This document shows, piece after piece, positions 6,796 through 24,493 of a stretch of 35,946 nt of DNA. How positions within the stretch are numbered: the first letter of the stretch is position 1; each line of letters opens with the position of its first letter. The translations under genes were made by a program, and so were the position numbers. This DNA is from an uncultured bacterium (GTDB taxonomy: Bacteria; DAOPZR01), in assembly GCA_964637655.1 (NCBI GenBank), contig CAZWUZ010000006.1, positions 1-35,946 on the forward strand, in the 5' to 3' direction. The notes below the pieces were generated by a model. The model saw only the letters and a program-made list of their open reading frames with translations, made no database searches and was not told where the DNA came from.

Positions 6796-6842
6796 CGGTC
6801 ATCCGGCTTGCGCGGTGTTGTTTCGGCAAGTATAGTTGGACT

Positions 6843-9169: not shown

Positions 9170-9171
9170 TC

Positions 9172-10332
9172 ATGGTTGACCAGACCGTGCTGTCCCGCCT
9201 GCTGCACAGCCGGGCCGTGCAGCGGATAAAGAATGAAATGCCGCCGGCGGTTGTGGCGCGACTGAAGCTGATGATCCCGGGCTATCACCGGCACCTCCGG
9301 TTTATCCCGCCGCGCGAGCGGTTCCTTACGGTCGTCATGGACCTGCAGAACAGCTGCAACCTCGCCTGCAAGATGTGTCACTTCGGTTTTCTTGGCGATT
9401 ACCCGAAGGAACCGTATGCTATTTCTCCGGCTAATTTCCGCCGTTTTGCCGATAATGTCCTTACCCGCACGGAGGAAATAGCCTTCTCGCCGTGCACGGA
9501 ACCGCTCATGCACCCGCAGTACGGGGAACTGCTCGACATCCTGGCCGAGTATCGCGTGCCGAAAATGTGGATGATGACCAACCTCAACCTGCTCACCCCG
9601 GCGATTGCGGAAAAGCTGGTGGCGATGCGCTTCGAGCGACTGCTGATCTCGCTCGACAGCTTCCGGCCGGAGGTTTACGAGTCGATCAAATGCAAGTCGA
9701 ATTTTGCGCGGGTGATCGATAATATCAAGATGGTCCAGGACATCAAACGCCGCACCGGCAGCGTGTACCCGAAAATCCATTTCAATTTCGTGCTGATGAA
9801 AACCACGGTCGACAATTATCCCGGCTACCTTGATTTCGTCGAATCGATTGGCGGGGAGCAGGTCGGCTTTTTCCATGTCGTGGTCTACCAGGGCGTGGAG
9901 AAGATGCGGGGCGAGAGCATGTGGCATCACCGCGAGCTGTACAACCGTTTTCATGATCAGGTGACGGCCGATGCGCGGCGCACGGGGATAAATATCGAAC
10001 GGCTGCCGGGAAAATTCGGGCAACCCGCCGCACCTGCCGACTGCGGTGCGGATGCCGGCGCTCCGCTGTGCCGCTATCCGTGGTATATCCTCGTGGTCTA
10101 TCCGCAGGGTAGTTTTAAACCCTGCGAATTCTGGTTCAACCAGAAGGTCTGGGGCAACCTGGTTACCGACCGTTTTGAGGATGTCTGGAACAGCGAGGAC
10201 TACCGCCGCCTGCGCTGGGAAGTCGATACGCGCCGGCCGTCGCGGTCCTGCTGCCGGAACTGCGTGTCCATGGCCGCGCTCGACGGCAGACCCGGCAGTG
10301 GCGATGCCTTCCGCGAGATTGTCTTCGAATGA
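9172..10332 (+). CDS. radical SAM enzyme, twitch/partial-SPASM type (paralog 2)
   Basis: Collinear paralog of 8045..9169, with CNLACKMCHFGF, SLD, CEFWFNQKVWGNL, YRRLRWE and CCRNCVSM all conserved. ATG at 9172 lies 10 nt after AGGA. The track ORF start at 9166 is a TTG overlapping the upstream stop. Confidence 0.85.
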   Translation: MVDQTVLSRLLHSRAVQRIKNEMPPAVVARLKLMIPGYHRHLRFIPPRERFLTVVMDLQNSCNLACKMCHFGFLGDYPKEPYAISPANFRRFADNVLTRTEEIAFSPCTEPLMHPQYGELLDILAEYRVPKMWMMTNLNLLTPAIAEKLVAMRFERLLISLDSFRPEVYESIKCKSNFARVIDNIKMVQDIKRRTGSVYPKIHFNFVLMKTTVDNYPGYLDFVESIGGEQVGFFHVVVYQGVEKMRGESMWHHRELYNRFHDQVTADARRTGINIERLPGKFGQPAAPADCGADAGAPLCRYPWYILVVYPQGSFKPCEFWFNQKVWGNLVTDRFEDVWNSEDYRRLRWEVDTRRPSRSCCRNCVSMAALDGRPGSGDAFREIVFE

Positions 10333-13055
10333 CCGATATCACTATCATCATCACGCCCTATACCATCATCAATTACCCTGCCATTGGTATCGGGTACCTG
10401 TATGCCTTTCTTACCGGGCGCGGCTACACCGTGCGGGTCATTGACTTGTCCAGCATGCTGCAAACCAGGTACCGTGAAAAACTTGCCGACAACCCGGCGG
10501 ACCGTGAACTGTGGCTCGATGAGCGGCGGGTGGCGGCGGTATTTGCCGGTTTGGAGGGGCAGGGGTGGTTCCGGGAACTGCTGGCCGTGATAACCAGCCC
10601 GCTGGTGGGGTTCACTTTATTTGACCCGTGCGTGCTGAGCGCCTGTCGCATGGCGCGCCTGTTGCGCGCGCGCCGGCCGGAAGTGAAAATTATCGCCGGC
10701 GGTCCGCGCGTCATTGACCCGGACTGGTGCGGCAGCCTGATCCCGCCGGAACCGCTGTTCGATGCCTTTGTCCATGGCGAGGGCGAGCTGGCGCTGGCGG
10801 CCCTGGTGGCGGCGGAAAAGGCGGGCGAATGGGGGCGGGCCATTCCCGGAGTTTCGTATGTGGTCGACGGCGGCCGGCGGCCGGGTCCGGCCGCCGAACC
10901 GGTTGCCGACCTGGATTCCCTGCCAATGCCCTCGTTTGCCTGGGCGAAGGAATTTCGCTATTTCACGGACCAGCTGCCCCTGCTGTTCAGTCGCGGGTGC
11001 ATCAGTCGCTGCATGTTTTGCGATGTCGATCGCTATTGGCCGGCGTTCCGGCAGCGTTCGGCCGCCTCGATGGCCGCCGAGGTTGAGCGGCAGGTCCGGG
11101 AGCACGGGACCAATGAGTTCTATTTCTGCGATTCCCTGATCAATGCCAATCCGCGCCGGCTTGAGGAGTTTTGCCGGCTGATCGTTGCCCGTGGCGTGAC
11201 GGTAGAATTCCACGGGATTGGCATCACCCGGGGCATGACGCCGGAACTGCTGCGCCTGATGTACGCGGCGGGGTTCCGCGTCTTTGAATACGGGGTCGAA
11301 AGCGGGTCGCAGCGGGTCCTGACGGCTATGCGGAAGCTGCACGCGGCGGCGGATATCGGGCCGACCATCCGCGCGACGGCTCAGGCCGGGATCAAGGCGA
11401 ATATTGACCTCATCGTCGGGTTTCCCGGAGAGACCGAAGATGACTTCCGCGCGACCTGCGACATGGTGCGGGATAATGCGCGCTGGATCAGCAAGGTGGT
11501 GGGACTCGACTGCTGCAATCTGGGCCGGGACCGCGCGGCGGCCCGCGGCCTGGACAAGGCCTATGGCATGACCTACCGCGGTGCCGGCTCGCATGACGAC
11601 TGGTCGGACGCGCACGGCAATACGCCGGAAAGCCGCACCCGACGGAAACTGGAACTGTACCGTTTGATTCGCGAGCTTAACCTGCCGGTCAGTGAATATG
11701 TGCATTCGCTGGAAATGGCGTCGCGCCGCCGACTGGGGCTGGCCGACGCTCACGACCGGGAGGAATACCTCGCGGCTTCCGGGCGCCGGGCTGCCCGGGT
11801 ATTGCGGCCGGACGGGCTGCGGCGCATCGCGGTGGTCGACCTGCTCTTCCAATGGCCGCCCGATGGCGGCGCCCGCACGGATGTGAAGGAGATCACCGCC
11901 CGCCTCGCCCGCGATTACGAGGTGAAACTCTTTGTGCCGGACCTGGATTTCGTGTTCCCGCGCGGGCGTGGGGCGGAACTGCCGGGTTTCCCGGTGGAAA
12001 AGGTCCCGACTTCCCCTCTGAGTTTTAACGCACTTGAATTCCCTGAGCGTTTGCGCGCGGCGGTGGGAAACTTCGCGCCCGACCTGGTATTCTTCACCGA
12101 CGGCTGGTACATGAAGACCCCGGTGCTGCGCAGTTTCGCTGATTACCGCTATGTCATCCGCTTCTATGCTTATGAAGGGCTTTGCTTGCGTCAGCACGGC
12201 ACCTTTTTCGTCAACGACCGGCTCTGCCGGCGCGATTACCTGAAGAACGGCGGCGATGAATGGCTGGCCTGCACCGAGTGCGCGCTGGCCTGGTTATGGC
12301 AGTCGCGGAGCAAGGTGTTTGCGCAGGAATACCTTGCCAGCGGCGCCTTCCTGCCCGGACACCGGCGGCGGGTGCGCAGCACCCTGCGCCAGGCGGCGGG
12401 GATCGTCTGCTATAACGATTACATCCGGGAAAAGCTGCAACCGTACAATCAAAAGGTGTTTATCTGTCCGAGCGGCATCGATCCCGACCTGTTCGCCTAT
12501 CGCGAGGGGCGGGAAACCGACCTGCTTCGACAGGATAGCATCACCCTGCTGATGGCCGGGCGGGTTTCCGACCGGGGCAAAGGGTATCATACGCTGCGGG
12601 CGGCCTACGACAAACTGAAAAAACGCTACCCGCAGCTGCGCCTGATGGTCACGCGCGAGACGGTTTATAACCGCACGGACCGCGACGTGATAACCTTCGA
12701 CTGGCAGACGCAGGAGAATCTGCCGGCGCTGTACGCGCAGGCGGACATTTGCGTGGTCCCGTCGGTGTGGCCGGAACCGTTCGGTATTGTCGCGCTCGAG
12801 GCGATGGCCAGCGGTGTGCCGGTGGTGGTGGCCGCGTCCGGCGGACTGCAGCATATCGTTGCCGACGGGGTGGATGGTCTGGTGTTTGCCGCGGGCGATG
12901 CCGATGACCTGGCAGCGAAACTGGAGTTGCTGATCAGCAATGCGCAACTCTATCGCCGGGTGCGCGAACGGGCGCGGGGCAAGGCCGAGACATACAATTG
13001 GGAACGGGTCTATTGCCAGGTACGTGAAGCGCTCGAAACAGCTTATCGCGTTTGA
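10329..13055 (+). CDS. bifunctional B12-binding radical SAM enzyme (N) / GT4 family glycosyltransferase (C)
   Basis: N-terminus carries a B12-binding domain (IIAGGP...) and an rSAM cysteine motif FSRGCISRCMFCDV with a TIM-barrel region (IVGFPGETEDD). The C-terminal ~350 aa is a GT-B/GT4 retaining glycosyltransferase (VVPSVWPEPFGIVALEAMASGVPVV, the E-x7-E region). 908 aa. ATGA overlap with the upstream gene. Confidence 0.85.
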   Translation: MTDITIIITPYTIINYPAIGIGYLYAFLTGRGYTVRVIDLSSMLQTRYREKLADNPADRELWLDERRVAAVFAGLEGQGWFRELLAVITSPLVGFTLFDPCVLSACRMARLLRARRPEVKIIAGGPRVIDPDWCGSLIPPEPLFDAFVHGEGELALAALVAAEKAGEWGRAIPGVSYVVDGGRRPGPAAEPVADLDSLPMPSFAWAKEFRYFTDQLPLLFSRGCISRCMFCDVDRYWPAFRQRSAASMAAEVERQVREHGTNEFYFCDSLINANPRRLEEFCRLIVARGVTVEFHGIGITRGMTPELLRLMYAAGFRVFEYGVESGSQRVLTAMRKLHAAADIGPTIRATAQAGIKANIDLIVGFPGETEDDFRATCDMVRDNARWISKVVGLDCCNLGRDRAAARGLDKAYGMTYRGAGSHDDWSDAHGNTPESRTRRKLELYRLIRELNLPVSEYVHSLEMASRRRLGLADAHDREEYLAASGRRAARVLRPDGLRRIAVVDLLFQWPPDGGARTDVKEITARLARDYEVKLFVPDLDFVFPRGRGAELPGFPVEKVPTSPLSFNALEFPERLRAAVGNFAPDLVFFTDGWYMKTPVLRSFADYRYVIRFYAYEGLCLRQHGTFFVNDRLCRRDYLKNGGDEWLACTECALAWLWQSRSKVFAQEYLASGAFLPGHRRRVRSTLRQAAGIVCYNDYIREKLQPYNQKVFICPSGIDPDLFAYREGRETDLLRQDSITLLMAGRVSDRGKGYHTLRAAYDKLKKRYPQLRLMVTRETVYNRTDRDVITFDWQTQENLPALYAQADICVVPSVWPEPFGIVALEAMASGVPVVVAASGGLQHIVADGVDGLVFAAGDADDLAAKLELLISNAQLYRRVRERARGKAETYNWERVYCQVREALETAYRV

Positions 13056-13070
13056 TGCCGCCGCCTGAGA

Positions 13071-14807
13071 TCAGGTGCGCGGGGCGAGTCGGCGCAGCAG
13101 CGGCTTGAGCAGATCGATGGCATGGATGAGCCGCGCCTGCAGCATGGTGTCACCGAAGCCATCGAGATTGATGTCCCGCTGCGGCAATGCGGTGCGGCCG
13201 ACCGGCTGCAGGCGGCCGAGCTGGGCGAGCACGACGGTCTGCACGCCGGTGTAATTCCATAACCCGTCATCCGTAAGTCTGAGTTCAGCCTGCACCTCGT
13301 GTGCGATGGCCTGCAGGGACCGGTTGCCGTCGCAGCGCCGGTAGAACGCATGCAGAAACGCGAGTAATTCAGCCGTGCGTGTGACGCGCAAGAGCGGCGA
13401 ACTGCCGGGCGGAGTGAAGCCGTACTGCGTGGCGATCTGGGCCTTGACGCAGATCAGCAGGTCGCGATAGGTCAGTTCCGGGGTCTGCTGTTGCGGGCGT
13501 TCGTCCAGCAGGGTGCGCGGCAGGAAATTCACGCGGTGATGGTAATAGTCGCGCCAGGTCCGGGTGTTGACCAATCCGAGCCGGGACGCGTCGGCATGCA
13601 ATTGCGTGCCCGGGTGGGGGGTGCAGAGCTGGCCGACATACAACGGCACCGGCATGTGATGGAAATGGGCAATCGGGTCGCAGCCAGCCAGCATGGCATC
13701 GATGAACTCGGCCTGGCGGTAATAAGTTTGCAGGGTATCACCGGGATTGAGCGCCATGTAGGTGAACAGGGGAACGAGTCCGGCGCGCTTGAGCAGTTCC
13801 GCCGCGATTCGGGTATCGGCCAAATCATCATCCTTGTGCACCGCCGCGCTGGCTTGCGGGTCGGCGCTTTCGATGCCCATTTCCAACCCGAGGCAGCCGG
13901 CGCGCTTGAGGAGGGGCAGCAGGTCGCCGCAGGCGCGGACATGGGCGGCGCGGGTCAGGCCAATCCAGCGGGTGTCCGGGGCGCGGGCGATGAGCAGTTC
14001 ACACAGGCGGGTGACCTGCCCGCGGTCGAGCAGCAGGTTATCATCCCAGAAATGGATGCTGGTCAGGCCGTATTGGCGGCGGATGGCGATGATTTCATCG
14101 ACGATATTGTCCGGCGAGCGCCAGCGCAGGCGCCGTCGCCAGAAAACCGGCGAAACGCAGTACGAACAGTTGTAGGGACAGCCGCGCGAGCCGATGACCG
14201 GCATGCGCCGGCCGCCGATGAGGTGCAGCGGCGTGTCGTAGTTGGCGAGCGGCATAAGGTCCCAGGCGGGGAAAGGCAGGGCGTCGAGGTCGGGCAGCAG
14301 TTCCCGCTCCCCGGTGAATGCCGGTTTCCCGTCGGCCGCGCGATACCACAGGCCGCGGATGCCGGCCGGGTCGCCGCCGCGGTTCAGGTCCCGGATGAGT
14401 TCGGGCAGCGTTGCCTCCGCTTCGCCGACGACAACAAAATCAGCGAAAGCCAGCGCGGCGGCGGGAAAAATGCTGGGATGCACACCCCCGGCGATGACCC
14501 GGGATCCGGCGGGCAGCAGCGGCCGCGCGCGGCGGGCCAGTTCCTCCGCGGCGTCCGCCATCGGGGTCCAGTAGGAGAGGCAGAGCAGGTCGGGCGCGGC
14601 GGCGGCGATGCGCGGCAGGGCGTCGGCGACGGTGAGGTTGCCCGACTGCAGGTCGAGAAACTGCAGGTTGAGGCCGGGCAGGTCGCGGCGCAGGACGGCC
14701 ATGAGATAGGCGATCCCGAGCGGCATCACCCGTTTGTGCCGGGCATTGACCTCGAGCGGCGGCTGGATGAACAGCACGGAGCGGACCGGCGAAGCTGGGC
14801 GGTTCAT
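13071..14807 (-). CDS. B12-binding radical SAM enzyme (class B)
   Basis: N-terminus MNRPASPVRSVLFIQPP...MPLGIAYLMAVL is a B12-binding domain. Cysteine motif IGSRGCPYNCSYCVSP. Start ATG at 14805-14807 (minus) overlaps the stop of the upstream GT4 (ATGA). The longer track ORF to 15197 is an N-terminal read-through artefact overlapping that GT4. Confidence 0.85.
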   Translation of the reverse strand: MNRPASPVRSVLFIQPPLEVNARHKRVMPLGIAYLMAVLRRDLPGLNLQFLDLQSGNLTVADALPRIAAAAPDLLCLSYWTPMADAAEELARRARPLLPAGSRVIAGGVHPSIFPAAALAFADFVVVGEAEATLPELIRDLNRGGDPAGIRGLWYRAADGKPAFTGERELLPDLDALPFPAWDLMPLANYDTPLHLIGGRRMPVIGSRGCPYNCSYCVSPVFWRRRLRWRSPDNIVDEIIAIRRQYGLTSIHFWDDNLLLDRGQVTRLCELLIARAPDTRWIGLTRAAHVRACGDLLPLLKRAGCLGLEMGIESADPQASAAVHKDDDLADTRIAAELLKRAGLVPLFTYMALNPGDTLQTYYRQAEFIDAMLAGCDPIAHFHHMPVPLYVGQLCTPHPGTQLHADASRLGLVNTRTWRDYYHHRVNFLPRTLLDERPQQQTPELTYRDLLICVKAQIATQYGFTPPGSSPLLRVTRTAELLAFLHAFYRRCDGNRSLQAIAHEVQAELRLTDDGLWNYTGVQTVVLAQLGRLQPVGRTALPQRDINLDGFGDTMLQARLIHAIDLLKPLLRRLAPRT

Positions 14808-15925
14808 GCGTTGGTATGCCGGGTGATGATTTCCGCGAGCTGGCGGGCGAGTACGGGCAGGGCATAGCGGGCGACACAATCGTCGTGCGCGGTCTCGGCC
14901 AGTCGCGGGTAAAGGGACGGTTCGGTGAGCAGGGCGCGGCACTGGCGCACGAAGCTGGCGCGGTCGCGGAAGAGCAGGCCGTTGTCGCCGTCGCGGATGA
15001 CGCGGCGGATTTCCCCGAAATCGCTGGCCAGGACCGGCAGACCGGCAGCCATGAACTCGAATATTTTGGTCGGACTCTTGGCCGCCATCCACTGCGCGTT
15101 GGCGGGGTCGGGCAGCAGCGGCACCAGACCGACATGGCAGTTTTTCAGGAAACCGGGCATGTCCCGCGGCGGCAGCGCGCCGGCGAAATGCACCCAACTT
15201 TCATCGCCGTGCCGGCGCACGTGTTCAATTACTGCGGGGAACCATTCGCCGTCGCCGGCCAACCGCAGCGTGAGCGGGTGCGTATTGCGCACTTCGCGCA
15301 GCGCGTCGATCAGGAATACAACATTGTCATGCATCACTTTTCCCCAGATCATGCCGGTCCATGCGAATGTCGGGGTGGCAGGCAGGGTGCACGGTTGGAA
15401 AACAAACCGGCTGGTATCGACCCCGGTGGGCAGGTAATGGACTTCCGGGTGCCATTGCCGCAGCAACTCGACCAGCGCGTGGCTGGCGGCCACGCAGCAG
15501 CGGGCATGGCGCGCTACCGCGGCGGTGACGCCGGTCGCATCGGTGGCGCCGAAAATCAAGCGGTTGACGGCCGCGGAGAAGAGCGGGGAACGGTCGAGGT
15601 CCCAGTCATCGTAATCGAGGATATAGGGCAAGCCGCACAGGCGGTGCAGCAGGAACGGCGCGGCGGCATGGTAGTGGACCTTCTGCAGGTAGAGCATGGC
15701 GCCGGCCTTGGGCAGGCGGCGCAAGGCGCGCAGGGTCAGGCGCAGTCGTTCCCGCTGCGGCAGGTCGAGCATGCGGGTGCCATCGGTTATGTCGGTGAGG
15801 TGTTCCTGAAAGGAAAACACCCCCGCATCCAGTCCGGCGCGGCGGAGCGAATCGGCGAAATGATAGCAGCGAACGCGGGTATAAGGTTTGCCGTAATCGG
15901 TCAAGCCGACGAAAATGTGGCGCAT
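14804..15925 (-). CDS. GT4 family glycosyltransferase
   Basis: GT-B fold with a C-terminal GT4 motif (EFMAAGLPVLASDFGEIRRVIRDGDNGLLF). 373 aa. ATG at 15923-15925 (minus). Confidence 0.8.
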   Translation of the reverse strand: MRHIFVGLTDYGKPYTRVRCYHFADSLRRAGLDAGVFSFQEHLTDITDGTRMLDLPQRERLRLTLRALRRLPKAGAMLYLQKVHYHAAAPFLLHRLCGLPYILDYDDWDLDRSPLFSAAVNRLIFGATDATGVTAAVARHARCCVAASHALVELLRQWHPEVHYLPTGVDTSRFVFQPCTLPATPTFAWTGMIWGKVMHDNVVFLIDALREVRNTHPLTLRLAGDGEWFPAVIEHVRRHGDESWVHFAGALPPRDMPGFLKNCHVGLVPLLPDPANAQWMAAKSPTKIFEFMAAGLPVLASDFGEIRRVIRDGDNGLLFRDRASFVRQCRALLTEPSLYPRLAETAHDDCVARYALPVLARQLAEIITRHTNA

Positions 15926-15934: not shown

Positions 15935-17434
15935 TCAGCCGCGCAACAGGCCGGCGAACGCGTTGAGGATTTTCTTGCCCGCCAGGAGCAGGCGGAAAAC
16001 GAACCGGTTCTTGATTCGGGCGACATCAGCCATGAGCGCTGAATATTCAGTGGATAAGGCGCTGAATTGGCCCTGCTTGCGTTCGAGATCGTGCCGGCAG
16101 TCGGCAAGCTGGTGATTCAAAAGGGATATTTCGTGGCGGCGGTCAGTCAGTTGCCGGTTAAGCTCAGTTGCTTGTTGGTTAAGCTCAGTTGCTTGCCGGT
16201 TAAGCTCAGCCACGGTATTGAGAAAGCGTTCGCGCTGGCTGCGGTTGTTGTCGATGCCGCGCAGCAGGGAGCGGCTCATACGGCTGATGTGGTCGGTTTT
16301 ATTGCGCAATTTCACCGGGTTGGCGCAGAAGCGGGCGAGTGCGGCGGTGGCGGCGACCGGGTCGAAACATTCCGTCGCCAGTCGCTGCGCATTGGCGCCT
16401 TTGCGGGCGCAGATGGCCGGACTGGCAAAAATTTCGTCCAGCACAGCGGTGAGCTGCTCACTGTCGGCCGGGTCGATGACCCAACCGGCGTCGTACCGGT
16501 GGATCAGGTCGCTGTAATACATCCCTTCGCTGTAGATGACCGGCAGGCCGTGGTGGAGGTATTCGACGGTGCGCGTGGTTGAGGCCAGTTCGCGTTCGGG
16601 ATTGGGTAGGTACAGTTCAACGGCGGCGGAAGCGGTCAGCAGATGCTCGTGAAAATTTTCGTGGCTGACCAATCCGCTGATGGTCACCGTCGGCTGGCCC
16701 GCCAGGCCAGCCAAACGCCGGTCGCTGTTGCGGTAGACGAAATCGCCGGCGCAGACCCGGAGCCGCCCGTTATGCCGGTGGCAGTAGTCGGCGATGGTGT
16801 TTAGCGAATCGCCGTAGTCGAGCCAGCGCCAAAGAACGCTCCCGAAAAATAATTCCGGTGGCGACGGGTATTCCCGGTGCCGCGGCGGTTCGCCGGCGCT
16901 GCTCAGCGGGCAGAGTGCGACCGGGTCGCGCTGCAGGTCGACCCCGGCCAGCATCAGGAACGGATACAGGTAGGCCTTCTGGCGGGGATTGGAGACGAGG
17001 AAAAGGTCGCCAAGGTGCAGGGTGGCGAGTTTTTTCTGGATGAAGAGGAAGTCGGCTTCGCGCTGCTCAAAGACGTTTTCCAGGGTAAGCGAGGCCGGCA
17101 GGTCGAAGACGATGGGGATGTCGCGGTTGGCCGTGTCCGGGGTAAAGGCCAGTGCGATAGTCCAGGGGGAAAACAGGATGCAATCGGGTTTGACCGAGGC
17201 GATGACTTCATTATGGTTGGCGTTGTCATGCGCCAGGTCCAGCCATTCTGCGTGAGGCGAAATGTTGTTGTGCTGTTGTAAAAAGTCGATGTTCGATTGC
17301 TGAAAGGAAATACGTACTGTATGCCCGTGCTGGCGCAAGCCGTGGCTCAGGGCATTGATGCGAACTCCGCGCCCGCCCGTGGGTATGCCAGGCAACGGAG
17401 TGAGTTCGGAAGTAAAAATCAGAATTGTGGCCAT
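15935..17434 (-). CDS. glycosyltransferase (GT-B-like N-domain) with C-terminal coiled-coil containing heptad tandem repeats and a terminal amphipathic helix
   Basis: N-terminus MATILIFTSELTPLPGIPTGGRG is GT-B-like. The C-terminal ~110 aa are coiled-coil (ELNRQATELNQQATELNRQLT...), ending in RFVFRLLLAGKKILNAFAGLL. ATG at 17432-17434 overlaps the Wzt stop (TGATG). The upstream track extension to 17620 overlaps wzt and is rejected. Confidence 0.75.
   Translation of the reverse strand: MATILIFTSELTPLPGIPTGGRGVRINALSHGLRQHGHTVRISFQQSNIDFLQQHNNISPHAEWLDLAHDNANHNEVIASVKPDCILFSPWTIALAFTPDTANRDIPIVFDLPASLTLENVFEQREADFLFIQKKLATLHLGDLFLVSNPRQKAYLYPFLMLAGVDLQRDPVALCPLSSAGEPPRHREYPSPPELFFGSVLWRWLDYGDSLNTIADYCHRHNGRLRVCAGDFVYRNSDRRLAGLAGQPTVTISGLVSHENFHEHLLTASAAVELYLPNPERELASTTRTVEYLHHGLPVIYSEGMYYSDLIHRYDAGWVIDPADSEQLTAVLDEIFASPAICARKGANAQRLATECFDPVAATAALARFCANPVKLRNKTDHISRMSRSLLRGIDNNRSQRERFLNTVAELNRQATELNQQATELNRQLTDRRHEISLLNHQLADCRHDLERKQGQFSALSTEYSALMADVARIKNRFVFRLLLAGKKILNAFAGLLRG
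16151..16213. repeat. 21-bp tandem repeat (about 2.9 copies) ttgccggttaagctcagttgc inside the coiled-coil coding region
   Basis: Direct reading of 16151-16171, 16172-16192 (2 mismatches) and 16193-16213 (partial). The unit length is a multiple of 3, so on the minus strand it encodes ATELNRQ heptads. Confidence 0.9.
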
Positions 17435-18177
17435 CAGGCGTGTCCGGTCGTGGCGGTGAGGAATTGCCGGATGGTCTCCGGGGCCGGTCCGGAAGTAACG
17501 AGATGGCCGTGGTCGAGCCAGATAACCCGGTCGCACAGGGCCTCCACCGCGGGCATCATGTGCGAGACGATGATGATGGTCTTGTGCTGACGCTTGAGGT
17601 CGAGGATATGGGCGCTGCACTTCTCCTGAAAGGCGGGGTCGCCCACAGCGATGATTTCATCGATGAGCAGCAAATCGAAGGGGACATGGATGGCGATGGC
17701 GAAACCGAGGCGCAGGCACATGCCCGACGAATAGGTATAGAGCCGGGTGTTGATGAAATCGCCCAGGCCGGAAAATTCGACGATGGCGGAAAAGCGCGCG
17801 TCGATTTCCGCGCGGGTCAGCCCGAGGATACTGGCGTTGAGGTAAACATTCTCGCGCCCGGTCAGTTCGGGATGGAAACCCGCCCCGAGCTCGAGCAGTG
17901 AGGAAATCGCGCCGTTGACCGCGACGCCGCCCGCGGTCGGGGTGGTGACTCCGGCGATCGCCTTGAGCATGGTACTCTTGCCGGAACCGTTGGAGCCGAT
18001 AATGCCGAGGCATTCGCCGCGCGCGGCGGTAAAAGACACGTCACGCAGCGCCCAGAACTCACGGAATGTGCCGACGCCGATGAGCGCGGGCAGCACGGAG
18101 CGGATAAGCGACGGCTTCTCGAAGTACACCCGGTAGCGCTTGCTGACGCCGGCGACGGCGAGGACAGGGTCAGACAT
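17434..18177 (-). CDS. wzt: ABC-2 type polysaccharide/glycan exporter ATP-binding protein (Wzt/KpsT/TagH-like), short form without C-terminal carbohydrate-binding domain
   Basis: Walker A GSNGSGKST, ABC signature YSSGM, Walker B LLLIDE. 247 aa, i.e. the nucleotide-binding domain only. ATG at 18175-18177 (minus) overlaps the wzm 3' end by 8 nt. Confidence 0.9.
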   Translation of the reverse strand: MSDPVLAVAGVSKRYRVYFEKPSLIRSVLPALIGVGTFREFWALRDVSFTAARGECLGIIGSNGSGKSTMLKAIAGVTTPTAGGVAVNGAISSLLELGAGFHPELTGRENVYLNASILGLTRAEIDARFSAIVEFSGLGDFINTRLYTYSSGMCLRLGFAIAIHVPFDLLLIDEIIAVGDPAFQEKCSAHILDLKRQHKTIIIVSHMMPAVEALCDRVIWLDHGHLVTSGPAPETIRQFLTATTGHA

Positions 18178-18946
18178 GGTCGGCCAGGTTGTGCCGCAGG
18201 CGGCGGAAGACCAGCCAGCCGCCGAACCCGAAGAAGAGGCAGACGGCGATGGTGAAGGTGGTTAGTTGCCGCGAGGGGAACATGCCGTTGATGATCAGGT
18301 CGCGGTAGAGCACGGTGAGCCCCGCCATGGGATTGAGCAGGAAAATGTAGAGCAGCTGCTTGGAAATGCCCTGCACCAGTTCGAGCGGGTAGAAGATCGG
18401 GGTCAGGTAAAACCATAACAGCAGGGCGATTTCGACGACATAGCGGGTGTCGCGGCAATAGACCTGCGCCGCCGCCACCACGAGGGCGAGGCCGAGGGTG
18501 AAAACCAGTTGCAGCAGCATGACCAGCGGCACCGCCAGCAGATACCACGACCAGCGGATATCGAAAAGCAGTAAAACCAGCATGGACAGGGCAAAATTGA
18601 TGAAATTGGCCAATACCACCGAGGCGGGCAGTAGTTCCCGGGGAAAACGGACCTTTTTTATCAGGTTGCCGTTATCGACTATGCTGCCGACCACTGTGGC
18701 GATGGTGAGGGAAAAGAAGGTCCAGGGGAAGAGCCCGGCGAGCAGGAAGGTCGGGGTGATGTCGAATTTCATCAGGTACTTGAAAACGATGAGAAAGACA
18801 CCCATGAGCGCGAGCGGCACGACCAGCGACCAGAGGAAACCCAGCCAGCTGCTCTTGTAGCGGACCTTGAGTTCCTTGAAGGCGAGGGTGCAGAGCAGCT
18901 CCCAGCGCTGCCGCCACCCCGGTGCGGTCGTCTGCATGGGGGCCAT
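18170..18946 (-). CDS. wzm: ABC-2 type transporter permease (Wzm-like)
   Basis: Hydrophobic 6-TM protein with the ABC-2 permease signature region (FLWSLVVPLALMGVFLIVFKY..., LNPMAG). Start chosen at ATG 18944-18946 (MAPMQTT), after the upstream stop at 18970. ATG 18937 is also possible. Confidence 0.8.
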   Translation of the reverse strand: MAPMQTTAPGWRQRWELLCTLAFKELKVRYKSSWLGFLWSLVVPLALMGVFLIVFKYLMKFDITPTFLLAGLFPWTFFSLTIATVVGSIVDNGNLIKKVRFPRELLPASVVLANFINFALSMLVLLLFDIRWSWYLLAVPLVMLLQLVFTLGLALVVAAAQVYCRDTRYVVEIALLLWFYLTPIFYPLELVQGISKQLLYIFLLNPMAGLTVLYRDLIINGMFPSRQLTTFTIAVCLFFGFGGWLVFRRLRHNLADHV

Positions 18947-18969
18947 TGTAGCGTCGGGAACGCGGGCTG

Positions 18970-19830
18970 TCAACGCGGGCGGGGGAGAAACGCGGCCAGC
19001 CAGGCGGCGGGATAGAATAGTGAGGCACCGCGTGTGGCCGGCAGGTCGGTCAGCGCGCGGAGCAGCGACCAGCCGAGCAGCCACACTTCATGCCATAGCA
19101 GGCGCGGCAGGCGGCGGGCAAGTTCTGCGGCGGGCAGTTTCAGCAGCATGCGCCGCCGCGCATATTCCTGCCGGTAGAACCGGCGCAGCGAACGCTGCCG
19201 CCCCATCGTGCCGCCCCACGCGTGCGTGGCGGTGAATGACGGATGCACGGCGACCGTGTGCCCAGTGCGACGCAGCCGCCACGACAGGTCGACATCCTCG
19301 TAATACCACAACCGGGTATCCCAGCCGCCGGCAGCGTCGACCGCGGCGCGGCGCCAAAGCGCGCAGGCGCTGCAGAGCGCGTCGACGGCAACCGATGCCG
19401 TGGCGGCCGGGGGCGCCAGCAACACGGTCGTGGCGGCGGGAGTGATCCGGGCGCCGGCGTTGTGCACGGTGCCGTCAGGGCAGCGCAGCACCGGCTGCAC
19501 CGCGGCGAGCGCCGGGTCGGTGTCGAGCGCGGCCACCATGCCGGCCAGCGTTGCCGCGTCGATGACCGCGTCGGTGTCAAGGGTGAGCACGTATGGCGCG
19601 CTCCCTTGCGCCCACGCGGCGGCGCGCGCGGCGGACGGGCCACCGCGCCGCGGCAGGCGCATGACCTGCACGCGCATGTCATGCGGCAGCGCCTCCGCGG
19701 TGCCGTCGGTCGAAACATCGTCGCCGACAGTGATGGCGGCGACGCCGGGCAGCGGCAGCAATTGCGGCAGCAGCGCCGCGAGGCGGTCGCGCTGGTTATG
19801 CGCGGGAATGACGATATCGATGGTGGTCAT
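18970..19830 (-). CDS. GT2 family glycosyltransferase
   Basis: Begins at MTTIDIVIPAHNQ, with DDVSTDGT (the D-x-D region) and later YYEDVDLSWR, all typical of the GT-A/GT2 fold. The ATG overlaps the upstream stop (ATGA at 19827-19830). The track N-extension to 19974 is rejected. Confidence 0.8.
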   Translation of the reverse strand: MTTIDIVIPAHNQRDRLAALLPQLLPLPGVAAITVGDDVSTDGTAEALPHDMRVQVMRLPRRGGPSAARAAAWAQGSAPYVLTLDTDAVIDAATLAGMVAALDTDPALAAVQPVLRCPDGTVHNAGARITPAATTVLLAPPAATASVAVDALCSACALWRRAAVDAAGGWDTRLWYYEDVDLSWRLRRTGHTVAVHPSFTATHAWGGTMGRQRSLRRFYRQEYARRRMLLKLPAAELARRLPRLLWHEVWLLGWSLLRALTDLPATRGASLFYPAAWLAAFLPRPR

Positions 19831-20633
19831 CGGGACACCAGCAGGCGCAGCGCCGCCAGCCAGCGGCAGGGCAACGTCAGCAGCAGCGGCCAGAGCAGTG
19901 CGGGTGCGTCGAGACAGCGGCGCGCCACGGCCGGCAGGTTGAGCAGTGGCAGCAGCCAGCAGCGCATGAACCATGGCAGCCCGTGCCGGCGGCGCACGAG
20001 ATGCTCAAAGTAATGGTAGCGGTAGAGCAGTCGGCAGAAGGAGACGATGGTGTCAGCACGGTGATGCTCCGCCCGCGCGGCTGCGCTGCGCTGCAGCGTC
20101 AGTCCGCGCGCCCGCAGCCGCCGCCCGAGATCATAGTCCTCGCCGTTGCTGCGGTAGCGTTCGTCGAACCCGCCGGCGGCACGCAGCGCCTCCGTGCGAT
20201 AGAGCACGCAGAGGCCGGGCAGGAACGCGAGCGGCTCCGGCGGCTGCTGCGCGAGGAAACGCGCGCGGAACCGGTCGTAGACGGTGCAGGCGACTGCCTC
20301 GCTGATGGTCGCGCCGCACCCGGCGGCATCTGCCGGCAGCGTGGCACCGAGCTGCGCGAGGCAATCCGGCGCGGGAACGACATCGGCATCGATGAAGAAA
20401 AGGAGGTCGCCGGTGGCCGCCGACAGCGCGGTGTTGCGCGCCGCGGCGAGCCCGCGATTGGTCTCGTGGCGCAGCAGGCGGACACCATCGGGGACCGTGA
20501 GCGGCGGCACCGAGCCGTCGTCAACCACGATGATCTCTGCCGGGGACAGCGTCTGTGCCTGCAGTGCCGCCAGCGCGCGCGGCAGGTGCTCCGGCTGATT
20601 GCGCACGCAGAGGGCGGCAGTGACGGATGCCAT
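19827..20633 (-). CDS. GT2 family glycosyltransferase
   Basis: Motifs SVTAALCVRNQ, IIVVDDGS, FIDADV and NGEDYDLGRRL indicate GT-A/GT2. The ATG overlaps the upstream stop (TGATG at 20631-20635). Confidence 0.8.
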   Translation of the reverse strand: MASVTAALCVRNQPEHLPRALAALQAQTLSPAEIIVVDDGSVPPLTVPDGVRLLRHETNRGLAAARNTALSAATGDLLFFIDADVVPAPDCLAQLGATLPADAAGCGATISEAVACTVYDRFRARFLAQQPPEPLAFLPGLCVLYRTEALRAAGGFDERYRSNGEDYDLGRRLRARGLTLQRSAAARAEHHRADTIVSFCRLLYRYHYFEHLVRRRHGLPWFMRCWLLPLLNLPAVARRCLDAPALLWPLLLTLPCRWLAALRLLVSR

Positions 20634-21877
20634 CAGTTCCTTCCGGCCCGGCGCTGTGCGACCAGTTCCGCGTAGAGCGCGCGGTAGGCGTCGGCGACAT
20701 GCACCCAGGTGTGGCGGGCGGTGACCAGTTCGCGGCCGGCGCGGCCGAGGCGCGCGCGTTGCGCATCGTCGCCGGCCAGTTCCTGCATGATGGTCGCGAG
20801 TGCGGCGGCGTCGTCGGGCGGCACGAAGCGTGCCGCATTGCCGTCGGCACCGGCGAGGTCGCGTTGCGGCGGCGCCTCGGCGAAGACCACCGGCAGTCCG
20901 GCAGCCCAGGCGTCGAGCGCGGCGATGCCGAACGAATCGGTGACGGTCGGATAGAGAAACACGTCGGCGGCGGCGTAGAGCTGCGCCTTGTCTTCCCCGG
21001 GAAAATCGGGGACGAGGGTAAGCCGCGCGCGTGCCGTCGCCGGGAGGCGTTCTGCTGCGGCGTGCACTTCTGCTGCGTACGGGCTGCGCGTGCTCCCCGC
21101 GAGCAGCAGGTGGCAGTCGGTGCCGGCGGCAACGCAGCGGGCGAAGGCGTCGAGGATGAGCGGCAGTCCCTTGCCCGGAATGAACTGCCCGGCATACAGG
21201 AACACCGTGCCATCAAGCCGCCAGCGCGTGCGGGCGGCGCTGCGGTCGACGCCGTCCGTCCAGCCGGGGTCGGCACCCGCGGCGATGAGGTGCACACAGT
21301 CAGCGGCGACGCCGTTGCGGACAGCACACTCGCGCTCGAATGGCGTGTGTGCGACATAGGCAGCAGCGCGACGGGTGAACCGCCAGGTGTACGGGTGGCG
21401 GTGCAGCGGCTCGCGGTCATGGTAGGCCCCGACGAGCACCAGCGGAGTACCGGTCAGCGGCGCCAGCCATGCCGCGGCAGGCATCTGCAGGCAGGGGAAG
21501 GTGGTCGCCATGACGATGTCGTGACAGCCGTGCAGCAGGCGGGGGAGGAGCGCAGGCATACGCGGTCCGAAACGGACGTAGCGCAGATGCGCGCCCGTCA
21601 TCCCGTCGCCACAGAAGGCGATGGCCCGGTCGAGCCACCGGGTGCCCCCGCGCCAGGTGCGCAGCCGCTCCACCCGCACGCCGTTGATGACCTCCACGCC
21701 GCAGGGTAATCGCTCGCGCTGCGGCAGATTGAAATCATCGCAGCAACAGCCGTCCGGGCAGAGTACGGTGACCCGGTCTCCGTGACGGTTGACCAGCAGT
21801 TCTGATACACGTTGTACGCGGTATTCACTCCCCCCCCGCGCTGGCGCGTACCCCTGAACGATATGCAGGATATCCAT
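20633..21877 (-). CDS. GT4 family glycosyltransferase (first gene of minus-strand operon)
   Basis: MDILHIVQGYAPARGG is a GT4 N-terminus. C-terminal motif YPTVTDSFGIAALDAWAAGLPVV (E-x7-E-like region). ATG at 21875-21877 (minus). Confidence 0.8.
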   Translation of the reverse strand: MDILHIVQGYAPARGGSEYRVQRVSELLVNRHGDRVTVLCPDGCCCDDFNLPQRERLPCGVEVINGVRVERLRTWRGGTRWLDRAIAFCGDGMTGAHLRYVRFGPRMPALLPRLLHGCHDIVMATTFPCLQMPAAAWLAPLTGTPLVLVGAYHDREPLHRHPYTWRFTRRAAAYVAHTPFERECAVRNGVAADCVHLIAAGADPGWTDGVDRSAARTRWRLDGTVFLYAGQFIPGKGLPLILDAFARCVAAGTDCHLLLAGSTRSPYAAEVHAAAERLPATARARLTLVPDFPGEDKAQLYAAADVFLYPTVTDSFGIAALDAWAAGLPVVFAEAPPQRDLAGADGNAARFVPPDDAAALATIMQELAGDDAQRARLGRAGRELVTARHTWVHVADAYRALYAELVAQRRAGRN

Positions 21878-22032: not shown

Positions 22033-23085
22033 ATGCGGTGTACCTGGAAGAAAACCGCCTTGCTGGGTATCGCAGTGATGCTGATGGCGGGCGTGTTCCT
22101 GCCGGATGCGCTCAGGGCCTCACGGCGGCGCATGGTAGTGGTACTGGTGACGGTTTCCGGACTAACCTACGATGCAGTGGTTGCCAGTCAGTCGCAGAGC
22201 ATGCCGCAACTGCGAGAGCTGATGCGGACCGGGGCATTGTTCACGAACGTGTACGCTCCGGCTGACAATGCCGCAGCGTCTCTTGCCTCGCTGCTTACCG
22301 GTATGAGTGTGCCGGAACATGGCGTGTGGGAAAAGGGGGATGTGCTGCTGAACAGCGTGCCGCTGCTGCCTGATGACTGGCGGCGACGCGGGATGCCGAC
22401 AGCGGCATTCAGCAATTCACCGCTGCCGCTGACGACCAGCCTGACCCACGGGTTTGCAGTCGCTCCGCCGCCGGCGATGGATGCCGCGCAGGTGAACGGC
22501 ATGGTGGCGGCATGGCTGGCGGAGCATCCTGCCGGTGGCACACCGCCGGCGCTCTGGGTGCACTACCGGGATGTGCTTACAGTTTCCGGTGGTGCGGAAG
22601 CGTTGCGCATGACCGATTACCACATCGGCAAACTGCTAACGGTACTCCGGCACGCCGGGTACCATCAGGGCAACACCATGTTTCTCGTTGCCGGGGTGCC
22701 CGGACCGGCGGCAGGCGGTGCACCTGCCGACCGGTTGTGCCGCGAAGTGGTGCACGTGCCGCTGGTCTGGTCGGTGCCCGGCGGGCGGCGGCAGGCGCGC
22801 CCTGAACTGCGGTCACTGGCCGACGTGCCGGCGCTGTTGCGGGCGGAACTGGACGGGTTGCCCTGGCCGTTGCCCGCGGCGGAAGTGTTCGCTACCGCCG
22901 GCGGCGCCCGCAGCGGCCGCCTGCACCTGGCGGCGATCAGTCCGGGCCGGTTTGCGGTTGACCAGGCCGCGACTGAACTCTCCCCGGCCGGGCAGGCATT
23001 TCACGCGCGCCAGCTGGCGCGTTCGCCGCTGCTGACCGCAGCGCGGCGCAGCGAAACACTGCGCGCCACCGGCTACCTGCACTGA
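22033..23085 (+). CDS. sulfatase-fold (alkaline phosphatase superfamily) protein, predicted catalytically inactive paralog; N-terminal signal/TM
   Basis: Collinear with the next gene but with active-site blocks degenerated. VVLVTVSGLTYDAV replaces the metal-binding DTxRADH block, APADNAAASLASLLTG replaces the nucleophile motif, and LVAGVPG replaces TADHGE. N-terminal hydrophobic segment KKTALLGIAVMLMAGVFL. Confidence 0.6.
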   Translation: MRCTWKKTALLGIAVMLMAGVFLPDALRASRRRMVVVLVTVSGLTYDAVVASQSQSMPQLRELMRTGALFTNVYAPADNAAASLASLLTGMSVPEHGVWEKGDVLLNSVPLLPDDWRRRGMPTAAFSNSPLPLTTSLTHGFAVAPPPAMDAAQVNGMVAAWLAEHPAGGTPPALWVHYRDVLTVSGGAEALRMTDYHIGKLLTVLRHAGYHQGNTMFLVAGVPGPAAGGAPADRLCREVVHVPLVWSVPGGRRQARPELRSLADVPALLRAELDGLPWPLPAAEVFATAGGARSGRLHLAAISPGRFAVDQAATELSPAGQAFHARQLARSPLLTAARRSETLRATGYLH

Positions 23086-23086
23086 T

Positions 23087-24493
23087 ATGCCGTCGCTGGC
23101 CCGCGCGACCCGGTTTTTCGTTGTGGTGCTGCTGCTGGCGGCCGGTATCATCGCGGGGTGGTGGCTGCAGCGCACACCGGAACCCGCCGCGGACGATACC
23201 CCCTCCTGCATCATCCTGCTCAGCATGGACACGGTGCGTGCTGACCATCTCTCACTCTACGGGTATGCGCGTCCAACGACTCCGCAGCTTGCGGCACTGG
23301 CTGCGGAGGCGGTGACTTTTACGCGGGTGTTGAGCCCGGCCCCGGCCACGGCACCGGCGCATATGTCAATGCTGACCGGGGTTTCGCCGGCGGTACACGG
23401 GGTCTACAATTACGGGGGCGGTGCGGTGCGACGGGTAGCGCCGTCGCTGCCGCTGCTCACCACGCTGCTGCGGCAGCACGGCTACCGGACGGAAGCGCTG
23501 GTCAGTTCGCCCAATGTCGGTGCGGAACTCGGGTTTGCCACGGGCTGTGACGGCTTCAGCGAGGATTTTTTCGCCTGCGGGCGGCTGTATGATGATGCCG
23601 GGCGCACGGAACGCGAGGAGGAGCAGCGGCTGCGCGACCTGCTGACGCGGGGCGGACGGGAGGAGAAACTCTTCCTGTTCCTGCACCATTATTTCTGCCA
23701 CCGCGTCTACCTCGCCCCTCCCGCGGCGTATCGTGAACGGTTCGCGGCAGCATTGCTGCCGGGCCTGCCGCGCAGCATTGCCGACGTGCGCCGCCAGGGC
23801 ACGGGAAATGACGACCATGATTTTTTCTCCCGGTTTGACGGCGGCACTGCCGCGCAGCGGGAGCATGTCGTGGCGCTGTATGACGGCACGCTTGCCTATG
23901 CCGACCATGTCGCCGGCATGCTCGTGCGCCTGCTGCACGAAACGGGGCGCTACGACCGCACCCTGCTGGTGGTTACCGCCGACCATGGCGAGGAGTTCAT
24001 GGAGCACGGGAGTTGGGGACATGACCAGCTGTACCGCGAGCATCTCGATGTTCCGCTGCTGGTGAAACTTCCGGGCCAGCGTGCCGGCGGCCGGCGGTAT
24101 GAGATACCGGTGTCCACGCTCGCGCTTGCCCCGACGATTCTCGCCGCTGCCGGCCTGCCCGTTCCCGCCCATATGCAGGGGCAGGTGCTGCCGCCGCTGG
24201 CGGATTCCCCGGCGGCGCGTCCGCTGGTTGCCTACCAGAACAGTGGTGATGAGCAGGGCAGAGATGTTGTTACCGGCATGCGGGTGGAAGATGGCGGGTA
24301 CGCGTGGTACTGGCACAACGGTGACAGCACCAGCGCGCGGTTGCATCTGCTGACGGATACCATGGAGCAGCATGACCTGGCGGGGGTGCGCCCGGAAATC
24401 GCGGCGCGGATGCGGACGCAGGCGGCAGCGCTGCTGGAGGAAGACCGCGCCTGCCGGGCACAGCTGGAAGCGGCACTCTCCGGCGAAGAGTGA
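23087..24493 (+). CDS. sulfatase-fold (alkaline phosphatase superfamily) hydrolase/transferase with T-x-P-x-H in place of sulfatase C/S-x-P-x-R
   Basis: ILLSMDTVRADHLSLYGY is the metal-binding block, SPAPATAPAHMSMLTG is the nucleophile block with Thr/His, and LVVTADHGEEFMEHGSWGH is the conserved DHGE block. N-terminal TM FFVVVLLLAAGIIAGWW. Confidence 0.75.
   Translation: MPSLARATRFFVVVLLLAAGIIAGWWLQRTPEPAADDTPSCIILLSMDTVRADHLSLYGYARPTTPQLAALAAEAVTFTRVLSPAPATAPAHMSMLTGVSPAVHGVYNYGGGAVRRVAPSLPLLTTLLRQHGYRTEALVSSPNVGAELGFATGCDGFSEDFFACGRLYDDAGRTEREEEQRLRDLLTRGGREEKLFLFLHHYFCHRVYLAPPAAYRERFAAALLPGLPRSIADVRRQGTGNDDHDFFSRFDGGTAAQREHVVALYDGTLAYADHVAGMLVRLLHETGRYDRTLLVVTADHGEEFMEHGSWGHDQLYREHLDVPLLVKLPGQRAGGRRYEIPVSTLALAPTILAAAGLPVPAHMQGQVLPPLADSPAARPLVAYQNSGDEQGRDVVTGMRVEDGGYAWYWHNGDSTSARLHLLTDTMEQHDLAGVRPEIAARMRTQAAALLEEDRACRAQLEAALSGEE

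Follow-up and report, generated by a model that had tools for sequence, protein, structure and literature searches.

Does a glycosyltransferase (GT) of an uncultured bacterium use its C-terminal coiled coil as a molecular ruler for the glycan exported by the adjacent Wzm/Wzt-type ATP-binding cassette (ABC) transporter? This question is raised by a 35,946-nucleotide stretch of DNA, hereinafter the window, from a member of the lineage DAOPZR01 (contig CAZWUZ010000006.1 of assembly GCA_964637655.1), in which a gene lying beside wzt encodes a 499-residue protein, hereinafter the stalked GT. An initial annotation of the window had pointed to a GT-B domain followed by a heptad coiled coil and a terminal helix in this protein, and had likened it to the WbdD and WbbB enzymes of O-antigen biosynthesis. 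To our knowledge, coiled-coil glycan rulers have been shown only for WbdD and WbbB, with the Klebsiella pneumoniae O4 and O7 proteins being inferred from their architecture, and in every case the exporter bears a carbohydrate-binding module (CBM). We used sequence analysis, structure prediction and comparative genomics to examine the stalked GT, its relatives and their gene neighborhoods. We found the head-stalk-foot layout of this glycosyltransferase and its coupling to wzt to be real, and present evidence that its stalk behaves as an evolutionary spacer. We tentatively propose that it acts as a length-gated ruler in the synthesis of an ABC-exported glycan, and weigh this proposal against other explanations of the same architecture.

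Architecture of the stalked glycosyltransferase

The gene and the parts of its product are as follows:
15935..17434, minus strand: gene of the stalked GT, a 499-residue head-stalk-foot glycosyltransferase, with its stop codon at 15935-15937 (open reading frame (ORF) list and translation)
16322..17434, minus strand: head, residues 1-371, a divergent GT4-like GT-B domain carrying the family signature NPERELASTTRTVEYLHHGLPVI (AlphaFold2, Foldseek, invariant columns)
16292..16321, minus strand: linker, residues 372-381 (PVKLRNKTDH), non-helical, with a dip in the predicted local distance difference test score (pLDDT; AlphaFold2)
16019..16276, minus strand: stalk, residues ~387-472 with the heptad register running on to ~478-480, a coiled coil of ~13 heptads (heptad scan, AlphaFold2, shuffles)
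16151..16209, minus strand: 21-bp tandem repeat, 2.8 copies with 89% matches (Tandem Repeats Finder)
15938..16018, minus strand: foot, residues 473-499 (RIKNRFVFRLLLAGKKILNAFAGLLRG), a conserved cationic amphipathic helix (charge, hydrophobic moment, conservation)

The start codon is the ATG at 17434-17432, and the equivalent methionine opens every ortholog (MATIL or MSKIL in the ortholog alignment). A longer ORF of 561 residues (15935..17620, with a GTG start at 17620) was rejected, as the orthologs begin at the internal methionine and the extension overlaps wzt. The wzt gene ends in a TGA whose A is also the first letter of the start ATG (TGATG at 17436-17432), an overlap that points to translational coupling of the two genes and bears out the earlier observation that the GT lies directly next to wzt. 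The GT-B domain, heptad coiled coil and C-terminal amphipathic helix were likewise correctly placed in the initial annotation, both in coordinates and in strand. That this gene codes for a real head-stalk-foot glycosyltransferase, coupled to wzt, is thus established.

AlphaFold2, run on the monomer only and with 21 homologs, yielded a model with a mean pLDDT of 90.3, in which residues 1-371 form two Rossmann-like lobes. Foldseek searches with this model recovered the retaining GT4 enzymes MshA, ManT (7qsg), GlgM, SPS, PglA, WaaG and BshA with E-values of 1e-14 to 1e-10; the top 50 matches, all with a probability of 1.0, are nearly all GT4 enzymes, along with a few GT5 glycogen synthases. In Pfam searches the window protein matches Glycos_transf_1 (PF00534) with 19.4 bits, which is short of the cut-off of 26.4, and seven of the ten long-stalk relatives tested pass the gathering score of this model (P0027 with 44.1 bits, P0029 with 44.5 bits). 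The GT-B assignment is hence supported by the predicted fold and its GT4 matches, though the Pfam match itself remains sub-threshold. At the sequence level the best match in the PDB is the mycobacterial methylmannose-polysaccharide mannosyltransferase (ManT). The head has the same fold as the retaining GT4 enzymes (MshA, ManT, PimA-like, WaaG, PglA and BshA), and shares with them an N-terminal glycine-rich loop and an acidic motif in the C-terminal domain. However, it is only 10-17% identical to them, the family signature N-x-E-R-E-L-A-x-T-T-R-T-x-E-Y seems to take the place of the EX7E motif, and none of the named enzymes carries a stalk. Ten positions that are invariant across a 21-sequence alignment (A2) are all present in the head (D111, E119, D143, W204, N278, E280, R281, R288, P298 and G317), with G21 and R25 being nearly invariant. 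E291 aligns with the second glutamate of ManT, and the upstream acidic residue is either E280 or E282 (a spacing of 10 or 8), within the invariant, family-specific N-x-E-R motif.

Beyond the linker, which the model presents as a possible hinge, a single helix spans residues 382-497 (116 residues); structure prediction, which the initial annotation had proposed as a check, thus gives one continuous helix. A heptad scan, performed with a crude scorer of our own that was also used for the rest of the family, finds a single unbroken register of ~13 heptads from residue ~387 to ~478-480, with V/A/A/L/I/L/L/F/Y/V/F at the a positions and L/L/L/R/L/C/K/L/L/I at the d positions. These residues fail to discriminate a dimer from a trimer. 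In shuffles of the tail that keep its composition, none out of 500 reached at least 90 coiled-coil residues, as against 94 observed and a shuffle mean of 15. Over residues ~374-486, searches of Pfam, NCBIfam and the PDB returned only chance matches of the coiled-coil type (SMC, Rad50, ATG14 and keratin), and of 19 proteins of the window that were scanned (724-25816) the stalked GT alone has a coiled coil. If straight, the 92-residue stalk would measure ~13-14 nm, at 1.5 Å per residue. The tandem repeat encodes three consecutive heptads, ELNRQAT, ELNQQAT and ELNRQLT; since its 21-bp unit codes for one heptad, additional copies would add whole heptads in frame. The register scan, the shuffles and this repeat together confirm the ELNRQAT-type heptad coiled coil that was first noticed by inspection.

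The foot has seven lysine or arginine residues, no aspartate or glutamate, and a hydrophobic moment of 0.4-0.6. An uncharged run of at least 12 residues was looked for in residues 473-499 and none was found; by its basic character and hydrophobic moment, the foot is amphipathic rather than transmembrane, and a transmembrane anchor for the C-terminus was rejected for want of such a run. From these features we infer that the foot is a peripheral membrane anchor and/or a partner-binding site. Thus, of the membrane-association helix proposed earlier, the amphipathic helix is upheld by charge and moment, with association with the membrane being a prediction from them.

Orthologs and the evolution of stalk length

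The close relatives of the stalked GT are few, 41-58% identical to it, and come from metagenome-assembled genomes (MAGs) or metagenomes. Every one of them combines the head with a helical stalk and a foot bearing the conserved motif D-x-x-R-I-K-x-R-x-x-F-R-x-L-L. Compared with the window protein, their heads are 45-63% identical and their feet 40-56%, as against 14-36% for the stalk, in which the heptad pattern is nevertheless kept. Conservation of the two ends around a fast-diverging middle fits a spacer role for the stalk.

We measured the stalks from anchor to anchor, i.e. from FCxxPxK at the end of the head to RIKxR at the start of the foot. By this measure the stalk has 104 residues in the window protein, 97 in P0002 (locus L002), 90 in P0003 and 83 in P0004 and in the ortholog of locus L004, with 93 in P0005, 79 in P0022 and 73 in the ortholog of locus L003. 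Four of these lengths (83, 90, 97 and 104) form an exact series in steps of seven, the window stalk exceeding those of P0002, P0003 and P0004 by 7, 14 and 21 residues respectively, and the lengths of 93 and 79 differ by 14. Among the seven sequences compared, seven of the 21 pairs differ by a multiple of seven, versus three expected (P ~0.036), and periods from 3 to 11 other than 7 show no comparable excess. This series is suggestive of a stalk that evolves by insertion and deletion of whole heptads, and the 21-bp repeat in the window shows how this could come about. As far as can be judged from such sequence comparisons, the behavior of the stalk as an evolutionary spacer may be regarded as established.

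The orthologous loci differ in their gene content. In L002 the order wzm-wzt-GT is kept, with a Wzt of likewise 247 residues. Between L002 (703-2305) and the window (17434-19084) Wzm and Wzt are 80-82% identical and the adjacent stalked GTs 58% (63% in the head and 36% in the stalk); a conserved CBM-less transporter beside a diverging GT is as expected for a substrate-agnostic exporter that works with a serotype-type enzyme. In L001 the GT directly follows an anchor of DUF512, Der and Memo/AMMECR1 genes, and is in turn followed by a GT4 and genes of the radical S-adenosylmethionine (radical-SAM)/SPASM type; neither wzm nor wzt lies within 10 kb of it. In L003 and L004 a two-gene unit, with a radical-SAM/SPASM gene preceding that of the stalked GT, lies among housekeeping genes. 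The radical-SAM/SPASM enzyme is the constant partner in the orthologous loci that are without wzm and wzt nearby.

The wider family and its gene neighborhoods

A profile search against 1.84 billion representative proteins recovered 311 sequences below an E-value of 1e-30 and 725 below 1e-10. The signature of the family, N-x-ERELA-x-TTRT-x-EYLW-x-GLPVI, was found in 90 of 167 family sequences. A C-terminal coiled-coil extension, counted where at least 28 coiled-coil residues are predicted, is present in 88 of the 152 sequences with a full-length head (28-495 predicted coiled-coil residues). The extensions range up to ~800 residues, and Pfam searches with ten long members detected no domain in them save coiled-coil look-alikes. 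In the stalk-less members a very basic amphipathic tail ends 50-68 residues past the head. As these members finish in a tail similar to the foot, the stalk is an insertion between head and foot, and the plan of the family, as its sequences present it, is a head and a basic foot with a variable rod (~0 to 800 residues) inserted in many lineages. A large long-stalk subgroup (P0026-P0061, and loci L006-L009, L013 and L038) has a distinct, strongly conserved C-terminus of ~35 residues, LPRLAYLFxVNLxxNxYMxxWQxRxGxxIFPG, which differs from the RIKxRxxFRxLL foot of the window group and may serve to bind a partner or be embedded in the membrane.

We examined 85 loci, comprising 80 metagenome loci and L001-L005. 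A Wzt-type ATPase is encoded on the strand of the GT in 22 of these, upstream in nearly all and often directly adjacent. In 20 of the 22 the Wzt bears a CBM tail of 155-211 residues, which Pfam confirms as Wzt_C for L013, and in L013 and L038 such a Wzt lies 1.7 kb upstream of a stalked GT. Of the 27 loci flanked by 3 kb or more to either side, 14 have within 9 kb a Wzt_C CBM, which is the hallmark of capped glycans of controlled length. By the evidence of these neighborhoods it may be taken as established that the GT family belongs among the systems for capped, CBM-checked, ABC-exported glycans. Stalk-less members typically lie, along with a CBM-bearing Wzt, in loci that have a separate terminator of the classic type, which is either a class-I methyltransferase-coiled-coil protein (L028, L037, L050 and L068) or a methyltransferase-coiled-coil-GT2-GT1 protein of the WbbB/O7 ORF6 format (L063 and L079). 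We also observed a class-I SAM-dependent methyltransferase fused to Wzt_C directly upstream of the long-stalked GT in three loci (L006 8515-9870, L007 2-1399 and L008 8533-9900), which have no Wzt within 10 kb of the stalked GT. Compared with the canonical pair of methyltransferase-coiled coil and Wzt-CBM, the accessory domains appear to have been swapped in this fusion.

The most constant neighbor of the stalked members is a radical-SAM/SPASM enzyme, which is found in 12 of 14 stalked loci and, within 6 kb, in five of the six long-stalk loci. A GT4 follows the stalked GT in seven loci (L001, L006-L009, L013 and L038); in L006-L009, L013 and L038 it is usually fused to a radical-SAM/SPASM domain. 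Such GT4-radical-SAM/SPASM fusions (~820-880 residues) are seen at L008 13217-15853 and 16469-19156 and at L013 11976-14441, and L008 additionally codes for a carbamoyltransferase-radical-SAM/SPASM protein (895 residues). That SPASM radical-SAM domains are joined to enzymes which handle sugars argues for glycans, rather than peptides, as the substrate. A literature search for radical-SAM/SPASM enzymes together with a GT and Wzt found nothing relevant.

The operon, its transporter and the surrounding window

On the minus strand of the window the gene order is GT4-GT2-GT2-wzm-wzt-stalked GT-GT4, followed by a gene for a B12-binding radical-SAM enzyme:
20633-21877, minus strand: GT4, upstream operon gene (Pfam)
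19827-20633, minus strand: GT2, upstream operon gene (Pfam)
18970-19974, minus strand: GT2, upstream operon gene (Pfam)
18170..19084, minus strand: wzm, ABC-2 permease (Pfam ABC2_membrane; NCBIfam match of the Wzm/RfbD type)
17434..18177, minus strand: wzt, ABC-transporter ATPase of 247 residues (Pfam ABC_tran at residues 44-175; partial NCBIfam matches of the TagH/Wzt type)
14804..15925, minus strand: GT4 directly downstream of the stalked GT (Pfam)
13071 to ~14800, minus strand: B12-binding radical-SAM enzyme, the listed ORF reaching 15197 (Pfam, NCBIfam)
10329-13055, plus strand: B12-binding radical-SAM-GT4 fusion of 908 residues (Pfam, NCBIfam)
6696-10332, plus strand: three tandem radical-SAM/SPASM paralogs (Pfam, NCBIfam)
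5974-6795, plus strand: methyltransferase (Pfam, NCBIfam)
3517-5904, minus strand: FkbM-methyltransferase-B12-binding radical-SAM fusion (Pfam, NCBIfam)

Three listed ORFs overlap their upstream neighbors by 100-400 nucleotides, namely those of the B12-binding radical-SAM enzyme over the GT4 (13071-15197), of wzm over the GT2 (18170-19084) and of one GT2 over the other (18970-19974). Their Pfam domains begin well inside, so that the true starts are probably internal; such over-extension of ORFs is typical of DNA with 65% G+C. For wzm, the overlap with the upstream GT2 and an alignment with the L002 Wzm that begins at residue 49 place the start probably at ~18940-18967.

Both Pfam and NCBIfam show the Wzt of the window to consist of the nucleotide-binding domain only. 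The possibility of a hidden or split CBM elsewhere in the window was rejected, since a Wzt_C-like profile, to which 20 related Wzt proteins contributed their C-terminal tails and a methyltransferase-Wzt_C fusion its Pfam-verified Wzt_C domain, had no match in a search of all six frames (best E = 4).

The glycan island at 3517-15197 is unusually rich in radical-SAM proteins, none of which reaches a curated NCBIfam cut-off. This richness suggests heavy radical (C-)methylation of the polysaccharide, or other radical chemistry on it. At 22033-25816 the island is flanked by two adjacent sulfatase-family genes (350 and 468 residues) and an alpha-amylase-like gene (440 residues), and sulfatase/phosphodiesterase-family genes recur near orthologs and a relative (L001 15293-16759, L004 15398-17368 and L013 8002-9969). 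The flagellar cap gene fliD lies at 26206-27711 on the minus strand, ~8.8 kb from the stalked GT; flagellin glycosylation was considered on account of it and set aside, since wzm, wzt and the six GT modules point to a polymer. Beyond fliD there are two long overlapping ORFs (27821-29719 on the minus strand and 27833-29959 on the plus strand) with no Pfam match and a strong AT skew of 0.28-0.29, and a gene at 29974-35598 for a giant protein of 1874 residues with DUF3686 ('ATPase involved in DNA repair', E 8e-170), DUF7902 and an AAA domain, which is unrelated to the glycan cluster.

At the other end of the window a DUF512-Der-Memo/AMMECR1 block (17-3509) precedes the glycan genes, as it does in L001 (1175-5312), with 71-75% identity between the two. 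The block is common to both and the gene content after it differs, so that a glycan island of variable content seems to occupy one fixed place in the chromosome. Among named relatives, those nearest to the window's Der GTPase come from Bacillota and Anaerolineae and are at most 52% identical to it, and only MAG sequences are closer. The host is thus not a proteobacterium but a member of a deep uncultured lineage, which leaves the O-antigen framing of the initial annotation without foundation. Given also that the top matches of Wzt are of the TagH type, we rejected that label and describe the product as an ABC-exported glycan.

Comparison with characterized coiled-coil systems

An extended coiled coil that bears the terminating enzyme at its distal end has been called a 'characteristic marker' of the termination strategy in Wzm/Wzt systems (PMC11231755). 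WbdD of Escherichia coli O9a and K. pneumoniae O3 is both chain terminator and molecular ruler; it resembles the stalked GT in being encoded in a Wzm/Wzt locus and in having its catalytic head distal to the membrane anchor (PMC3482155, PMC5082667, PMC11231755). However, the head of WbdD is a methyltransferase and kinase rather than a glycosyltransferase, its stalk is trimeric and ~20 nm long as against the ~13-14 nm deduced here from sequence and a monomer model, and it works with a CBM-bearing Wzt, whereas that of the window is without a CBM. In WbbB of K. pneumoniae O12 and Raoultella terrigena, and in O7 ORF6, which likewise serve Wzm/Wzt pathways, the terminating module is distal and a coiled coil keeps it apart from the end near the membrane (PMC11231755). 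In these proteins polymerase GT modules follow the coiled coil, whereas only the 27-residue foot follows it in the stalked GT; further, the terminator of WbbB is a GT99 beta-Kdo transferase. A direct PDB sequence search with the stalked GT gave no WbdD- or WbbB-like match.

In layout, ORF7 of K. pneumoniae O4, a GT137 alpha-Kdo transferase, is likewise a single-function GT whose C-terminus forms a coiled coil. This membrane-associated, stand-alone terminating GT is encoded with wzm and wzt, and the polymerase modules are on separate polypeptides (PMC11231755). It differs in having a non-canonical fold with a tetratricopeptide repeat (TPR)-like bundle, a CMP-Kdo donor and a CBM on its Wzt, whereas the stalked GT has a canonical GT4-like GT-B head, no TPR and no CBM; by the PDB sequence search the stalked GT is not a sequence relative of either ORF7 or WbdD. 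In light of these comparisons, the analogy to WbdD and WbbB that was drawn at the outset holds for the head-stalk-foot layout and the position beside wzt, and fails on the CBM, which Wzt is without; a terminator activity is not to be read off homology. A candidate ruler as such comes as no surprise, the coiled coil being known from the literature as a hallmark of the termination strategy. Less expected are the missing CBM, the partnership with radical-SAM enzymes, the series of orthologs in heptad steps and the series of stalks from 0 to 800 residues.

A proposed mechanism and its alternatives

We propose that the stalked GT is a peripheral-membrane, probably oligomeric, glycosyltransferase working in an ABC-transporter-dependent glycan pathway. 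Its cationic foot (473-499) would lie on the cytoplasmic face of the membrane, the site of lipid-linked glycan growth, where it may also recruit partner GTs, and a parallel coiled coil of 13 heptads would hold the GT4-like head ~13-14 nm off the membrane. From there the head would have access to the non-reducing end of a chain only once the chain is about as long as the stalk. It would thereby act as a length-gated, late-acting transferase, most likely adding the chain-ending residue(s), and the length of the stalk, altered in whole heptads, would set the size distribution of the glycan. As Wzt is devoid of a CBM, the cap would have no gating role in export. Oligomerization, membrane binding, the acceptor and donor, the terminating activity and the ruler effect itself are parts of this scheme that we infer. 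We consider such a length-gated ruler to be the most economical reading of the head-stalk-foot architecture, and put it forward tentatively, as quite possible though short of probable. It has some comparative support in the conserved head and foot around a divergent stalk, in the heptad steps and the 21-bp repeat, which bear on length control indirectly, in the range of stalk lengths within the family and in the association of the family with Wzt_C; the overlap with the wzt stop codon and the place of the gene within the operon also fit.

Several observations weigh against this proposal. A CBM is present in all terminated systems studied so far (PMC11231755), and the six-frame search described above recovered none from the 36-kb window; three of the five orthologous loci (L001, L003 and L004) are without wzm and wzt within 7-10 kb; the ten-residue linker of the AlphaFold2 model may allow the head to swing back to the membrane; and the statistic for heptad steps draws on seven sequences only. 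Moreover, stalk-less relatives lie beside separate terminators, so that terminator activity is not to be deduced from homology, and by ancestry the head family is more likely to comprise chain-building transferases. The main rival view is that the stalked GT is an ordinary chain-building GT4, of the adaptor or polymerase-module kind, whose tail merely oligomerizes, tethers and gathers the GT4 and radical-SAM enzymes. Stalk length would then have no effect on the product, and the balance of polymerase and transporter would set chain length, as in K. pneumoniae O2a; indeed, in the CBM-less K. pneumoniae O1/O2 (O2a) systems it is the stoichiometry of transporter to biosynthesis that does so, and the role of coiled-coil proteins as scaffolds has been stressed (PMC11231755). 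The lack of a CBM on Wzt, the coexistence of stalk-less relatives with methyltransferase-coiled-coil terminators and the GT4, free or fused to radical-SAM/SPASM, found consistently downstream of the stalked GT are in keeping with such a scaffold. Yet a pure anchor is not expected to vary by ~0-800 residues between a conserved head and foot, nor a mere anchor to change by whole heptads among close orthologs, and raising an early-acting GT that depends on a lipid acceptor 13 nm off the membrane would be counter-productive. We regard a role as scaffold or anchor only as possible, and as only somewhat less likely than the ruler.

A different possibility is that the protein does not primarily belong to a Wzm/Wzt pathway, and instead forms a unit with a radical-SAM/SPASM enzyme acting on some other substrate, for instance a modified peptide, a glycolipid or a methylated polysaccharide of the cytoplasm; its adjacency to wzt would then be incidental in a mosaic island. 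The pairs in L003 and L004 among housekeeping genes, the lack of wzm and wzt near the GT of L001, the frequency of radical-SAM/SPASM neighbors in the stalked and long-stalk loci, and the cytoplasmic polymer made by ManT, the best PDB match, are all in line with it. Against it stand the overlap of the start codon with the wzt stop and the wzm-wzt-GT order kept in L002, the strong association of the family with Wzt and Wzt_C, and the radical-SAM/SPASM-GT4 fusions of relatives, which point to glycan and not peptide chemistry; these make it unlikely. That there is no real coiled coil, with a helix of biased composition, or one that spans the membrane, lending the protein a superficial likeness to a ruler, is essentially excluded: the monomer-only AlphaFold2 run and the use of a heptad scorer in place of a dedicated predictor leave some room for it, but the protein has one register over ~13 heptads with L/I/V/F/A at a and d, the 500 shuffles did not reproduce it, the pattern persists in orthologs at 14-36% identity and no uncharged stretch of 12 or more residues is present.

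Implications for the family

If the stalked GT is indeed a length-gated ruler, the ruler principle would also hold for a canonical GT4-type head, for a deep uncultured lineage outside the Proteobacteria and for a system whose export is not gated by a cap. Orthologs with stalks of 83, 90, 97 and 104 residues form a natural series that, together with the in-frame 21-bp repeat, is a ready-made set of variants for the ruler model. If it is a scaffold only, it would be a peripheral-membrane glycosyltransferase of the ordinary kind, set in a glycan island that is unusual for its many radical-SAM enzymes. For the family as a whole, the series from stalk-less members to stalks of 800 residues, with the same head and basic foot, would clearly exemplify a spacer that evolves through insertion.

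A broader and rather improbable conjecture is that the stalked GT4-like members constitute a distinct and widespread class of rulers, in which a GT head is borne on an inserted coiled coil over a conserved membrane foot. Such rulers would be tuned by heptad slippage through 21-bp repeats, would need no CBM checkpoint, would be found far from the Proteobacteria and would be partnered with glycan-modifying radical-SAM/SPASM enzymes. Were this conjecture true, the stalks of 500-800 residues (>70 nm) would gauge polymers that exceed the ~20 nm span of WbdD several times over.

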